Source: an uncultured Candidatus Saccharibacteria bacterium
GTDB taxonomy: Bacteria > Patescibacteriota > CALEFQ01 > G965231055
DNA length: 64,000 nt
NCBI GenBank assembly: GCA_965231055.1
Contig: OZ246411.1
Span: 48,334 to 112,333, forward strand
Direction of reading: 5' to 3'
Positions within the stretch are counted from its first letter, which is position 1. The number at the start of each line of letters is the position of its first letter. Shown in pieces: positions 2,920-29,154 of the stretch. A model generated the notes under the pieces. That model was given only the letters and a program-made list of their open reading frames with translations, did not search any database and was not told the origin of the DNA. Both the position numbers and the translations under genes were made by a program.

Positions 2920-2994
2920 TGGCTCCCCGAGCTGGACTCGAACCAGCAACCCTCTCGTTAACAGCGAGATGCTCTACCATTGAGCTATCGGGGA
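2920..2994 (-). tRNA. tRNA-Asn (anticodon GTT)
   Basis: cloverleaf: acceptor TCCCCGA/TCGGGGA, anticodon loop CTGTTAA, T-arm GGTTCGAGTCC, encoded CCA. Confidence 0.9.
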
Positions 2995-3017
2995 ATAATT
3001 GAATATGCAAATTTTTA

Positions 3018-3091
3018 TCAGCGAGATGCTCCCTGCCTCTACCTGTCGGTAGACAGGTGCCGGCAGGCAGATACCATTGAGCTATCGGGGA
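3018..3091 (-). pseudogene. truncated tRNA-Asn 5'-half pseudo-copy with 39-nt GC-rich palindromic insert in the D-loop
   Basis: TCCCCGATAGCTCAATGGTA + insert + GAGCATCTCGCTG, then diverges at the anticodon; no 3' half. Confidence 0.6.
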
Positions 3092-8831: not shown

Positions 8832-8853
8832 CCTCTGCCTGTCGGTAGGCAAG
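8832..8853. repeat. 22-nt motif CCTCTGCCTGTCGGTAGGCAAG (18/22 identical to the insert in the tRNA-Asn pseudo-copy)
   Basis: direct comparison with 3036..3057. Confidence 0.4.
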
Positions 8854-8915
8854 CTGAACTTGTTTCAAGGTCTATGGAAAGGAGAGAAAATGAAAGTTAG
8901 AAACAAGGATCTTAA

Positions 8916-9325
8916 GTCGTCGTCTTCCCCGCGAATGCGGGGATCCAGACACCACGTATGACTAATTTTAGGAGGGATAAATGAATAAAAGCTATTATGT
9001 ATATATTTTAGCAAGTAAGCGTAATGGTACGCTCTATATTGGTATAACCAATGATTTAGCAAGAAGAGTGCTTGAGCATAAGGAAGGAAAAGGCTCTATA
9101 TTCACAAAAAAGCATAAAGTTAATATACTCGTATACTGTGAAACCCTATCAACTGCACATGATGCCATCTGTAGAGAAAAACAACTCAAGAAATGGAACT
9201 GAAGATGGAAACTAGAACTTATTGAGACACAAAATCCTTTCTGGAAAGATCTATCAAAAGAATACTTTGGATACTAAACCACGACGACTTCTGGGTCCCC
9301 AATCAAGTTGGGGATGACGACGGGA
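8916..9325 (+). mobile_element. GIY-YIG mini-element with hairpin-containing terminal inverted repeats
   Basis: left gtcgtcgtcttccccgcgaatgcgggga; right tccccaatcaagttggggatgacgacggg (inverted); inserted between ABC ATPase and permease. Confidence 0.6.
8981..9202 (+). pseudogene. GIY-YIG nuclease family protein, interrupted by in-frame TGA (family-typical C-terminus continues to 9277)
   Basis: YYVYILASKRNGTLYIGITNDLARRVLEH; after TGA the frame reads RWKLELIETQNPFWKDLSKEYFGY. Confidence 0.7.
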
Positions 9326-9426
9326 GCATAGGCCTTATCGTAATTAGATGGAATGACGACTGTTTCAAGAACTGTTCGCAAAAGAAAGACTCCTAGTTAA
9401 AAACAATAACAACATATTATAAATAT

Positions 9427-13950: not shown

Positions 13951-13964
13951 CTGGTCGGGGCGAG
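13951..13964 (-). repeat. 14-nt direct repeat of the tRNA-Pro 3' end (ctggtcggggcgag), att-like
   Basis: identical to 14753..14766; adjacent 35-nt hairpin 13919..13953. Confidence 0.45.
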
Positions 13965-14753: not shown

Positions 14754-14831
14754 TGGTCGGGGCGAGAGGATTTGAACCTCCGGTCTCATGCACCCCATGC
14801 ATGCACTTTAGGCCAGCTAAGCTACGCCCCG
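14754..14831 (-). tRNA. tRNA-Pro (anticodon GGG)
   Basis: acceptor CGGGGCG/CGCCCCG, anticodon stem CATGC/GCATG loop ATGGGGT, T-arm GGAGGTTCAAATCCTCT, CCA. Confidence 0.9.
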
Positions 14832-14884
14832 ATAATAATATTCGCTTGTTATAAAAATTTTCACACAAAACCTAATCAACTACA

Positions 14885-14933
14885 CCTTAGGCCAGACCCG
14901 AGGGGTCCCCCTTGGGGCTAAGCTACCCCCCGA
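14885..14933 (-). pseudogene. truncated tRNA-Pro 5' pseudo-copy with 22-nt GC-rich palindromic insert in the D-loop
   Basis: CGGGGGGTAGCTTAG + ccccaagggggacccctcgggt + CTGGCCTAAGG, then diverges. Confidence 0.55.
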
Positions 14934-19630: not shown

Positions 19631-19692
19631 TGTTATTAGTATTCAATAATCAGTATTCATTATTCATGAAAACTGAACACTGATTACTAACT
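19631..19692. repeat. AGTATTCAGT-type palindromic intergenic repeat R2
   Basis: agtattcaataatcagtattca...gaaaactgaacactgattac 5' of the flavodoxin start. Confidence 0.55.
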
Positions 19693-20374
19693 ATTTAGTA
19701 CTTATCAAGAATCTCCAAAGTTTTTGGTTTTTCACCTCATCCAACCTTAGCACGATATATAGCCAATACAAAATGGGCCCCAATGAAAAATACATTATTT
19801 GCATCCAAGTAGGTGCGTGCATACAGTCACACAAAGGAAGTCCATCATAAGTTGCTGATGTTATATTATGAATATTCAAAGAATGATAACCATAAGTCTC
19901 AAAAAATATAAGTACTACAAAATAAATAAAATAGAAAAAAATGAACTTAGCCCAAAGTTTTTTAATTTTTAGTTTGTGCTTAAGATAAGCATAAAGGGTA
20001 TGAACTCCAAAAAGCCCGAGCGCCCAAGCAAAAGCTGGAAACAGATTTATACCCACTAGTGTTAAAAAGCTGTGGTTGTATCCATACTGATCTCTAGCAA
20101 AAATCATCCACAAAAAAGCGATCAATGACGCTACCAAAAAACGATAAGTTAAAACCTTATTTTTTAAAGCCAGCAAAAAACCCAAAACAAAAAAGTAGAT
20201 TATCACAAGCGAATAAGAAATAGTCAGCACATAATCAGGACTATTGATAAGTCCAAAAACAATCGTGATTAATAGAGCCACGAGACCACAATACAAAATC
20301 ACCTGCTTTTTGTGTTTCAGTAATGTTTGCTCAAGCTCTGCAATACTTTTTTCTACTTTTTTTATATTTATCAT
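19691..20374 (-). CDS. multi-pass membrane protein, hypothetical
   Basis: 6-7 predicted TM helices. Confidence 0.4.
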   Translation of the reverse strand: MINIKKVEKSIAELEQTLLKHKKQVILYCGLVALLITIVFGLINSPDYVLTISYSLVIIYFFVLGFLLALKNKVLTYRFLVASLIAFLWMIFARDQYGYNHSFLTLVGINLFPAFAWALGLFGVHTLYAYLKHKLKIKKLWAKFIFFYFIYFVVLIFFETYGYHSLNIHNITSATYDGLPLCDCMHAPTWMQIMYFSLGPILYWLYIVLRLDEVKNQKLWRFLISTK

Positions 20375-27796: not shown

Positions 27797-28990
27797 TTAA
27801 CCTTTTTTAACATACTCGCCAATCGCAATGCCTAGAACCTGCATCGCTTTCTTGAGTCTACCCGAATCCAGTACAAATGCAACCCTTATCTCATCTTTTC
27901 CAAGCCCCTTTGTAGAATAAAATCCGGAAGCAGGTGCTACCATAACTGTTTGATTTTTGTATCTAAATTTCTCAAGTAACCACTTAGCAAAATCATCAGA
28001 ATCTTTTATTGGTAGCTTTATAGTCATATAAAAAGCTCCGCGCGGCTTTACACAAAATGCGTTTTTGATTTTAGCTAATTCAACAAACGCAACATCTCTT
28101 CTTTTTTTATATTCCATAGCAATCTTGCGAGTATATTTTTTTGAATTTTCAAGCATTTTTACAGAAGCAAGCTGCTCAATCAACGGCACAGAAAGTCTAG
28201 CCTGAGCAAATTTCAAGATCGCCTGCATTATTTCTTTGTTTTTTGAAGCCACGCATCCTATCCTTACTCCACACGCATTAAACCTCTTTGAAATACTATC
28301 CATGATAACTATTCTTTCTCTAGCTCCCGCAAAATCAAATGGAGAAACAAATCTAGCGTCATCATAGACAAATTCCCTATAAACTTCGTCAGAGAGAATA
28401 AACAAATCGTGTTCTTTGGCAATGGCGACGATCATCTCAATTTCTTTTTTGGTATAAACCGTGCCCGTGGGATTATTTGGATTACAAATCAAGATAGCTT
28501 TGGTTTTCTTGGAGATACACTTCTCTATTTCTTTTTTTGAAGGCAAATGAAATCCATTTTCAGCTTTCAGCGTAATTGGTTTTAGTTTTATATTGGCTAT
28601 AGATGCATAGCCATTGTAATTGGCATAAAAAGGTTCAAAAACCAAAATTTCATCACCATAGTCAGCAACCGCCGCCATGGCAAACAAAATCGCCTCACTT
28701 CCTCCGGCAGTCACAATAATCTCTGAGGCATCAAAATTCATCTTGTAACCCTTGAAATATTTTTGCCATGCGGTAATAGTCTCAGGAATTCCGCTTGAAG
28801 GAGTATAGGGAATTATTTTTTTATTAAACTTTTTTATCGCACTCAAAATTTCTTTTGGAGTTTCTATGTCTGGCTGACCTATATGCAATTCAAAAACCTC
28901 CACTCCCTCTTTTTTGGTTTTTTCAAGAAGTGGAACAAATTTGCGTATTGGAGATGATTGAGCCTCGCTGGCTCTTTTGGAAATATACAT
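27797..28990 (-). CDS. pyridoxal-phosphate-dependent aminotransferase (class I/II, AspAT-like)
   Basis: fold-type I architecture, SxSKxF lysine motif DSISKRFNACGVRIG. Confidence 0.85.
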   Translation of the reverse strand: MYISKRASEAQSSPIRKFVPLLEKTKKEGVEVFELHIGQPDIETPKEILSAIKKFNKKIIPYTPSSGIPETITAWQKYFKGYKMNFDASEIIVTAGGSEAILFAMAAVADYGDEILVFEPFYANYNGYASIANIKLKPITLKAENGFHLPSKKEIEKCISKKTKAILICNPNNPTGTVYTKKEIEMIVAIAKEHDLFILSDEVYREFVYDDARFVSPFDFAGARERIVIMDSISKRFNACGVRIGCVASKNKEIMQAILKFAQARLSVPLIEQLASVKMLENSKKYTRKIAMEYKKRRDVAFVELAKIKNAFCVKPRGAFYMTIKLPIKDSDDFAKWLLEKFRYKNQTVMVAPASGFYSTKGLGKDEIRVAFVLDSGRLKKAMQVLGIAIGEYVKKG

Positions 28991-28992
28991 AA

Positions 28993-29068
28993 TAAGTATT
29001 CAGTTTTCAGTATTAAGTGATCAGTGTTCATGAATATTAATCACTGACAACTGAATACTTAATACTTC
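28993..29068. repeat. AGTATTCAGT-type palindromic intergenic repeat R3 (centre catg)
   Basis: aagtattcagttttcagtattaagtgatcagtgttcatg / mirror image. Confidence 0.6.
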
Positions 29069-29154
29069 GTATTATACCAGAAAATCAACAAAGTATCTGC
29101 AATGGCTTGAAATCTTATCAGCTCCTTATTAAAAATTTAATCCGGTTTTTTATC

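Follow-up and report, generated by a model that had tools for sequence, protein, structure and literature searches.

Palindrome-split half-tRNAs in a Saccharibacteria genome are probably remnants of a selfish GIY-YIG/palindrome tRNA cassette

We have analyzed a 64,000-nucleotide (nt) stretch of DNA from an uncultured Candidatus Saccharibacteria bacterium (assembly GCA_965231055.1, contig OZ246411.1, positions 48,334 to 112,333 of the forward strand; hereafter "the window"), in which the genes for tRNA-Asn and tRNA-Pro are each preceded by a palindrome-interrupted copy of their own 5' part (hereafter "orphan"). The results indicate that the same architecture occurs in dozens of unrelated assemblies, and they support the original prediction, made from the letters of the window alone, in its view of the pattern as recurrent and specific. 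In intact versions, an open reading frame (ORF) for a small stand-alone GIY-YIG protein lies between the orphan and the complete tRNA gene. We conclude that the half-tRNAs of the window are probably remnants, devoid of the ORF, or, with lower likelihood, non-autonomous copies, of a selfish GIY-YIG/palindrome tRNA cassette, and that the cassette probably comprises a nuclease gene (UPF0213/Slx1-like), a direct partial duplication of a tRNA gene, and a 20-nt palindrome.

At the first locus, which lies on the minus strand, the intact tRNA-Asn(GTT) gene, with encoded CCA, occupies positions 2920..2994 (ARAGORN; Rfam RF00005, 72.6 bits). An AT-rich 24-nt spacer (2995..3018), at the site occupied by the GIY-YIG ORF in intact cassettes (compare loci L150 and L191), separates it from an orphan in two pieces: segment 1 (3072..3091), which BLAST aligns with tRNA-Asn positions 1-20 (20/20, E 3e-6), and segment 2 (3019..3031), which it aligns with positions 21-33 (13/13). 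The pieces are collinear, are identical to the intact gene at 33/33 nt, and are separated by 40 nt (3071-3032), so that the predicted copy of positions 1-33 with an insert is borne out. The insert is GC-rich, as had been said, but is not one 39-nt palindrome; it comprises 40 nt and consists of two nested 20-nt elements. The outer element is a GC-rich palindrome, CCTGCCTGCCGGCAGGCAGG, which we designate PAL and which is present here with 1 mismatch (19/20); its left 14 nt (tCTGCCTGCCGGCA, first base C to T) are at 3058..3071, and its right 6 nt (GGCAGG) are at 3032..3037. The inner element, PAL2 (CCTGTCTACCGACAGGTAGA; 20/20), is nested in PAL after its 14th base, at 3038..3057, giving tCTGCCTGCCGGCA + CCTGTCTACCGACAGGTAGA + GGCAGG (14 + 20 + 6 = 40 nt). 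PAL interrupts the orphan between GGTA and GAGC, the same position as in L150. L154 and L205 hold perfect copies of PAL2, and L167 holds one with 1 mismatch; each of these copies occupies the T loop of a 3' tRNA fragment beside a GIY-YIG ORF.

At the second locus, also on the minus strand, the intact tRNA-Pro(GGG) gene (14754..14831; ARAGORN, Rfam) is separated by an AT-rich 51-nt spacer (14832..14882), again at the ORF position of intact cassettes, from an orphan that is 26/28 nt identical to it. Segment 1 (14918..14932) corresponds to tRNA-Pro positions 1-15 with 1 mismatch (BLAST), and segment 2 (14883..14895) corresponds to positions 16-28 with 12/13 identities, slightly longer than the piece ending at position 26 that had been described essentially correctly. 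A clean 22-nt GC-rich hairpin insert, CCCCAAGGGGGACCCCTCGGGT (14896..14917), splits the pieces in the D loop; its sequence is not PAL-like. The window contains four tRNA genes, all on the minus strand (ARAGORN, Rfam). BLAST of the tRNAs against the window detects no upstream copy at the two tRNA-Ser genes, and the pattern thus affects two of the four. A scan of the 64-kb window at <=3 mismatches returns 0 matches for PAL, 2 for PAL2, and, for the tRNA-Pro insert, that insert itself alone; we therefore reject a dispersed high-copy repeat within the window, since neither insert recurs as such in the 64 kb.

Comparison with other genomes supplies the context for both loci. At several genomic PAL loci, PAL lies in the D loop of a tRNA 5' fragment, and the same tRNA, complete, follows directly downstream. 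The usual layout is a partial tRNA copy interrupted by PAL or by a palindrome akin to it, then a stand-alone GIY-YIG ORF of about 80 amino acids (aa), then the intact tRNA. An orphan with PAL, an ORF, and a complete tRNA occur together at L046 (WWE3, curated complete genome, tRNA-Lys), L127 (tRNA-Leu), and L115 (tRNA-Gly), where the 230-250 nt between orphan and tRNA encode a 75-90 aa protein; cassettes at tRNA-Asn, as in the window, occur at L150 and L191. The ORF decays: at the same position, it is 5'-truncated in L048 and L083 and frameshifted in L115. Orphans with PAL and no ORF, resembling those of the window, occur at L010, L013, L039, and L092.

To characterize the association from the side of the protein, we used 80 metagenomic loci gathered through GIY-YIG ORF homology alone (the "ORF-selected set"). 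An adjacent same-strand tRNA is present at 70 of the 80, with 59 tRNAs starting -5 to +130 nt after the ORF and 17 lying just upstream of it. Leu and Arg are the dominant isotypes, and Lys, Gly, Met, His, Gln, Val, Ser, Ala, Ile, Phe, Pro, and Asn are also represented. Where a locus of the 5' type extends far enough upstream, the stretch of 60-130 nt preceding the ORF reproduces, in nearly all cases and at 95-100% identity, the 5' portion of the same tRNA; the copy runs from tRNA position 1 to about position 22-74 and is interrupted by an insert. Scoring as PAL-like any 20-mer with <=4 mismatches to PAL, we find 47 PAL-like 20-mers (29 of them exact) within -200/+250 nt of the ORFs, whereas the rest of these loci, 143,764 nt in all, holds only 1. 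Clean inserts measure exactly 20 nt in 18 of 33 cases and fall at 10-30% of the tRNA length, in the D arm, in 26 of 33. Other inserts are related GC palindromes, such as CCCGCCCG...CGGGCGGG, and some PAL copies carry large nested insertions (about 120 nt in L173, about 95 nt in L179, three inserts in L194); the PAL centre is a hotspot for nested insertion both in the ORF-selected loci and in the tRNA-Asn insert of the window.

About ten loci, including L131, L151, L154, L178, L190, and L196, show a mirror form, in which a complete tRNA is followed by the ORF and then by a 3' orphan; the palindrome interrupts the T loop of the orphan, or its D loop where the second copy is nearly full length. 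In L007, the ORF is enclosed by a direct repeat made up of the 3' end of tRNA-Pro and the flank downstream of it, and PAL is present in one copy only; comparison of the filled with the empty repeat reveals that 20 nt were cleanly inserted and that no target sequence was duplicated. In general terms, an ORF lies between direct repeats of its target, one repeat being split by a palindrome at a fixed point. Repeat identity ends at or near tRNA position +1: of 41 loci, 15 show 0 nt of identity beyond it and 38 show <=6 nt, which fits transfer with the tRNA sequence as sole homology and not local tandem duplication. A D-loop-targeting insertion element followed by partial duplication had been among the origins initially proposed and comes closest to this formula, while missing the GIY-YIG ORF, the palindrome family, and the mirror form with its 3' orphan.

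The cassette ORFs, 73-88 aa long, encode a bare GIY-YIG domain (PF01541 only; Pfam E 1e-14 to 1e-16), whose alignment shows no variation at residues Y5, Y15, R25, H29, and E61. Among solved structures, the UPF0213 proteins 1YWL and 1ZG2 come nearest, followed by SLX1, and the ORFs match the "minimal, Slx1-like" prokaryotic GIY-YIG group of Dunin-Horkawicz et al. 2006 (PMC1564403). For 42 of 68 ORFs, the nearest neighbour belongs to a tRNA of the same isotype, where shuffling gives 16.7 on average and 29 at most; for 28 of 68, the anticodon is also the same (shuffling: 5.7 on average and 16 at most); nearest neighbours do not cluster by 5' versus 3' cassette architecture. The palindrome remains unchanged across phyla while the cassette ORFs diverge to about 50% identity, which argues for sequence-specific recognition of PAL. 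The window itself contains one member of the same broad family, a stand-alone GIY-YIG ORF on the plus strand at 8981..9277 (PF01541; hmmsearch, Pfam), which is probably a pseudogene, since the homologous frame continues beyond an in-frame TGA at 9200-9202. A PAL2-like 20-mer (17/20; 0 expected by chance in the sequence scan) lies on the minus strand at 8834..8853, about 130 nt upstream. As a separate observation, the ORF is bracketed, within 8900-9330, by GC hairpins and a 10-bp inverted repeat (AAGTCGTCGT ... ACGACGACTT), and it apparently sits within a large stem-loop, not within a tRNA.

According to the mechanism that we propose, which extrapolates from the +1 boundary of the repeats, the sharing of isotypes, the constancy of PAL, and the nested insertions at its centre, the cassette would spread by nuclease-driven homing via tRNA homology. 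The nuclease, which might recognise PAL, DNA hairpins, or both, would break naive target DNA at the loop-coding site. An allele that bears the cassette would then serve as the template for repair, tRNA sequence would provide the homology to either side of the break, and palindrome, ORF, and second repeat would form the copied tract. The duplication would leave the essential tRNA intact, and the palindrome would mark the break point, inactivate the orphan, and shorten the repeats able to delete the cassette.

The window loci correspond to this cassette in that, at both tRNA-Asn and tRNA-Pro, a partial copy starts at tRNA +1 and carries a clean palindrome insert at a loop-coding site, of the PAL family at tRNA-Asn and not at tRNA-Pro. 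They depart from it in that the orphan and the tRNA are separated by spacers of just 24 and 51 nt with no ORF, and we therefore regard them as remnants or non-autonomous derivatives. Several observations weigh against this assignment and against homing. The two spacers contain neither an ORF nor a recognisable ORF remnant, and the loss of an ORF is therefore deduced from the family and not from the window lineage. The tRNA-Pro insert CCCCAAGGGGGACCCCTCGGGT matches no other insert among the loci gathered up to that comparison. PAL copies in genomes are mostly solo, with a GIY-YIG match within the 8-kb stretch at 9 of 120 PAL loci, and PAL can therefore exist or spread without a neighbouring ORF. 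The clustering of ORFs by tRNA isotype could reflect vertical inheritance instead of homing. The functional tRNA retains an unmodified target site, which is awkward for simple homing-endonuclease logic, and the cassette ORFs, having the GIY-YIG domain alone, possess no separate DNA-binding domain.

The RpoD protein of the window matches database proteins labelled Moranbacteria or Patescibacteria, and the window is accordingly placed among the Patescibacteria, close to Moranbacteria. The gene order dnaG - rpoD - PF05635 "23S rRNA IVS protein" (IVP) - tRNA-Asn, all on the minus strand, is retained in five relatives with 65-66% RpoD identity (L003-L007), and the orphan is absent from all five despite the synteny; the structure was therefore gained in the window lineage and is evolving fast. 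In a close relative with 97% RpoD identity (L002), the same IVP gene is followed by a degenerate orphan with a 31-nt GC hairpin insert and then by a second copy (copy B) comprising tRNA-Asn 1-20, a perfect PAL, and GAGCAT, at which point the contig ends; L002 carries at least two PAL-bearing copies. Database members of the IVP protein number just three, namely those of the window, of its NCBI copy, and of L002. We did not find an ORF-bearing version of the window loci among the relatives reached in the window lineage, of which L002 ends within copy B. The motif ATTATT before tRNA-Asn was considered as a remnant of the ORF 3' end, by analogy with L150, where the ORF stop lies inside the tRNA, and was dropped, as it also occurs in the cassette-less L007.

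Beyond tRNA genes, PAL without any mismatch occurs in at least 120 stretches from GTDB species-representative genomes, whereas chance alone would give about 0.5 in 596 Gb. The hosts, as judged from record titles, include many Patescibacteria lineages, Bacteroidota (cultured isolates included), Omnitrophota, Planctomycetota, Thermodesulfovibrionales, and others, and also Proteobacteria-labelled metagenome-assembled genomes (MAGs). PAL is further present in 35 IMG/VR viral stretches (L210-L244); one viral contig of 29.5 kb holds at least 6 copies. A tRNA lies within 300 nt of 15 of 125 PAL copies, and in 6 of the 9 GIY-YIG-associated genomic PAL loci the ORF is <400 nt away. Inverted repeats of 6 bp or more surround 11% of PAL copies versus 2.2% of controls, so that the notion that PAL always sits at hairpin tips holds only in part. 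A direct 6-mer is shared by both flanks in 15% versus 3.8% of controls, reflecting tandem, often heptameric, repeats. The adjoining 5' base is most often A (44%) and the adjoining 3' base most often T (38%). At L069 (3861-4145), PAL, translated as PACRQAG, and a GIY-YIG domain lie in frame in a long ORF similar to the specificity subunits of type I restriction systems.

These distributions prompt a broader suggestion, which we advance tentatively and consider somewhat less probable than its converse: that PAL and the minimal GIY-YIG protein constitute an unrecognised class of mobile element, a structure- or palindrome-specific nuclease with a cognate 20-bp palindrome. Possibly, too, such elements home into tRNA genes and other hairpin-rich DNA by target duplication, and, with the same reserve, they may seed solo 20-nt palindromes in many phyla and some phages. 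The sequences flanking PAL might then serve as homology guides for target choice. By an analogy that is unproven, the relation of solo PAL to cassette resembles that of a non-autonomous to an autonomous element, as in REP/RAYT.

The alternative that best survives the comparison, and that we nevertheless consider unlikely, is that the window orphans never held an ORF. They could be mini-cassettes, consisting of a palindrome and tRNA pieces, that are moved in trans by a GIY-YIG nuclease whose gene lies at another place, or palindromes of the PAL type, as very small mobile repeats of an autonomous kind, could have entered a pre-existing local partial tRNA duplication; our estimate covers both versions jointly. 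ORF-less orphans with PAL are common (the two of the window, L010, L013, L039, and L092), and PAL, besides being mostly solo, occurs at the centres of hairpins and within tracts of heptamer repeats, well away from tRNAs. The perfect identity of the tRNA-Asn orphan to the intact gene suggests a recent event, and the window contains the GIY-YIG family member at 8981-9277. Against these points stand the truncated and frameshifted ORFs, which show that ORF decay occurs at this very position, the very strong association of PAL with the ORF in the ORF-selected set, and the odd coincidence that would be needed for prior partial duplications to have started exactly at +1 at two tRNAs.

Quite improbable is a functional leader, in which orphan and hairpin would be kept for an action in cis on the tRNA, as a promoter, as a processing or stability hairpin, or as a competitor for acceptor-strand pairing. 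Both orphans, and likewise the intact tRNA-Pro gene, have weak sigma-70-like motifs upstream; both inserts are predicted to fold as stable hairpins; in the centroid fold, the orphan acceptor strand pairs with the 3' acceptor strand of the intact tRNA; and, in both cassette orientations, the palindrome lies at the outer end of the predicted ORF transcript. The fold z-scores are, however, modest (-2.8 and -1.7), syntenic relatives entirely lack the orphan, and two of the four window tRNAs do without one. PAL, moreover, is conserved across phyla as sequence, not as structure with compensatory changes, which points to protein recognition and not to a generic RNA hairpin. Promoter-bearing pseudo-tRNA leaders, also proposed at the outset, therefore find no support as the origin of the structures; the weak promoter-like motifs leave it possible that the orphan is transcribed as part of the tRNA leader, which we do not regard as the reason for the structures.

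Still less probable, and rejected on the architecture of the family, is that the orphans are scars of integrases, that is, att-site remnants of tRNA-targeting integrative elements later excised or deleted. The DNA 3' of tRNA-Asn is variable among L003-L007 and looks like an integration hotspot, with a large serine recombinase in L003, and, in an archaeal precedent, a recombinase element separates a tRNA from a 5' fragment located upstream (PMC3293823). The duplicated part in the window is, however, the 5' part, only 24-51 nt from the gene, and not a 3' repeat accompanied by a tyrosine or serine integrase; window gene content includes no integrase next to either orphan; the orphan is split by a palindrome; and the gene between the repeats in intact versions is a GIY-YIG ORF, not a recombinase. 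The original prediction was thus right to set the pattern apart from the traces of classical tRNA-targeting integrases. An assembly error at tRNA repeats can be dismissed as extremely improbable, and so can a tRNA gene that carries an intron or that is split or permuted, the last two having been suggested originally: the L002 contig does end within repeated tRNA sequence, and group I introns do occur in Patescibacteria tRNA-Asn (PMC13011429; compare L150), but the tRNA-Asn structure is identical base for base in an independent Logan assembly of SRR10912416 (L001), the architecture is common to many assemblers, platforms, and phyla, the window tRNAs are complete and uninterrupted with no matching 3' half for the orphans, and Rfam at gathering thresholds over the window reports the four tRNAs only and no intron match.

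Several further features of the window and of the comparison loci were recorded. Window GC content is about 36%, versus 44% in the first 4 kb, where the DNA 3' of tRNA-Asn lies, and a CTP synthase gene lies upstream of tRNA-Pro. On the minus strand at 2766-2795, 125 nt downstream of tRNA-Asn and beside the stop of a TrmB-like gene, GAGTTCGAGT + CCTGCCTGCC + CTC forms a T-loop-like motif (equal to tRNA-Asn positions 52-61) followed by an exact PAL left half; this may be a truncated 3' orphan. An exact 13-nt copy of the tRNA-Pro 3' end (CTCGCCCCGACCA) at 13952-13964, about 790 bp downstream of tRNA-Pro, sits in a local GC-rich island; it may be a repeat of the att type or may have arisen by chance (E 0.05). 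Long imperfect palindromes of tandem heptamer-like units (TATTCAG/TTTTCAG...), intergenic and centred on TTCATGAA, occur at 28989-29072 and 19640-19693. The islands 3' of tRNA-Asn in L003-L007 differ, and carry either a large serine recombinase with restriction-modification genes, or an EcoRI-type methylase with GmrSD, or Fic and TIR genes. In L007 (2980-3560), families of GC-rich multi-hairpin repeats, some with UUCG-type loops, flank tRNA-Ser and both tRNA-Pro genes, and a PAL-bearing repeat follows both tRNA-Pro genes. In L102 (4650-5250, minus strand), a Saccharibacteria MAG, a GIY-YIG ORF of the family lies inside an insertion in the 23S rRNA gene. In L150 (1700-1875), the cassette-bearing tRNA-Asn also appears interrupted after anticodon position 35, and an older-looking second orphan lies further upstream.

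The cassette reading accounts for 5' orphans directly upstream of working tRNAs, which annotation pipelines and integrase-based models leave unexplained. It offers a likely role for the widespread stand-alone UPF0213/Slx1-like GIY-YIG proteins, which may be selfish genes that invade essential RNA genes non-lethally via target duplication. The constancy of PAL across phyla implies a conserved sequence-specific recognition event, and the pair might serve as a compact nuclease/site combination. The reading also adds to the view of RNA genes of Patescibacteria (the Candidate Phyla Radiation, CPR) as hotspots of selfish insertion.

In the literature searched, we found no description of the cassette or of PAL, an absence that is not proof of novelty. 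Very small mobile repeats in Nostocales, termed SDRs (21-27 nt) and attributed to Elhai et al. 2008 (Genome Res 18:1484), reportedly form hairpins and are said to make clean and nested insertions, also in tandem heptamer repeats and structured RNA genes. They differ from PAL in sequence and in taxa, and neither an associated nuclease gene nor tRNA duplication is known to have been described for them.

Among known systems, free-standing homing endonuclease genes of the phage T4 segB type come close: segB is a GIY-YIG gene in a tRNA gene cluster (PMC2330249), and genes of this type share with the cassette a location among or beside tRNA genes, presence/absence polymorphism between relatives, and presumed spread by break-induced gene conversion that co-converts flanks. 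The cassette ORF has, like them, a GIY-YIG domain with conserved catalytic residues. In contrast to them, it is an approximately 80-aa catalytic domain without a DNA-binding domain, its nuclease activity being predicted; it lies inside a duplicated tRNA gene, not between genes; it is paired with a near-invariant 20-nt palindrome; and it is found in cellular genomes of many phyla.

Published work on prokaryotic tRNA fragments attributes the fragments to integrative elements and CRISPR. The fragments left by integrative elements (PMC9897764), and in particular the Caldiarchaeum 5' tRNA-Thr fragment with its recombinase element (PMC3293823), the nearest precedent for 5' duplication, share with the cassette one partial tRNA copy and one full copy flanking an insert and preservation of the working tRNA. 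Those elements differ from the cassette in measuring 2-23 kb, in encoding integrases or recombinases, in usually duplicating the 3' part, and in leaving a fragment that is not split by a palindrome.

Selfish insertions in structured RNA genes, in the same host phylum and the same tRNA, are represented by the Patescibacteria group I introns found within tRNA-Asn/Asp at position 35/36 (PMC13011429, which mentions neither orphans, palindromes, nor GIY-YIG) and by the insertion sequences in CPR rRNA genes (PMC11270868). L150, which combines a 35/36 intron-like insertion with a cassette, and L102, with its GIY-YIG ORF inside 23S rDNA, unite features of these cases and of the cassette. Group I introns, however, interrupt the functional gene and are spliced out, whereas in the cassette the functional tRNA is uninterrupted and the duplicate carries the insert.

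Finally, REP/REPIN sequences with their RAYT genes (PMC3116915; PMC3733652) parallel PAL and the cassette in being GC-rich dispersed palindromes of about 20 nt, mostly solo, and in including a single small nuclease-type gene flanked by palindromes. They are unlike them in that the cassette enzyme is GIY-YIG and not an HUH/Y1 transposase, that PAL lacks a GTAG or CGTC tag, that PAL is identical across phyla whereas REPs are species-specific, and that tRNA duplication is no REP feature. If PAL and the minimal GIY-YIG protein do form a class of mobile element, that class would be the GIY-YIG counterpart of the REP/RAYT pair.

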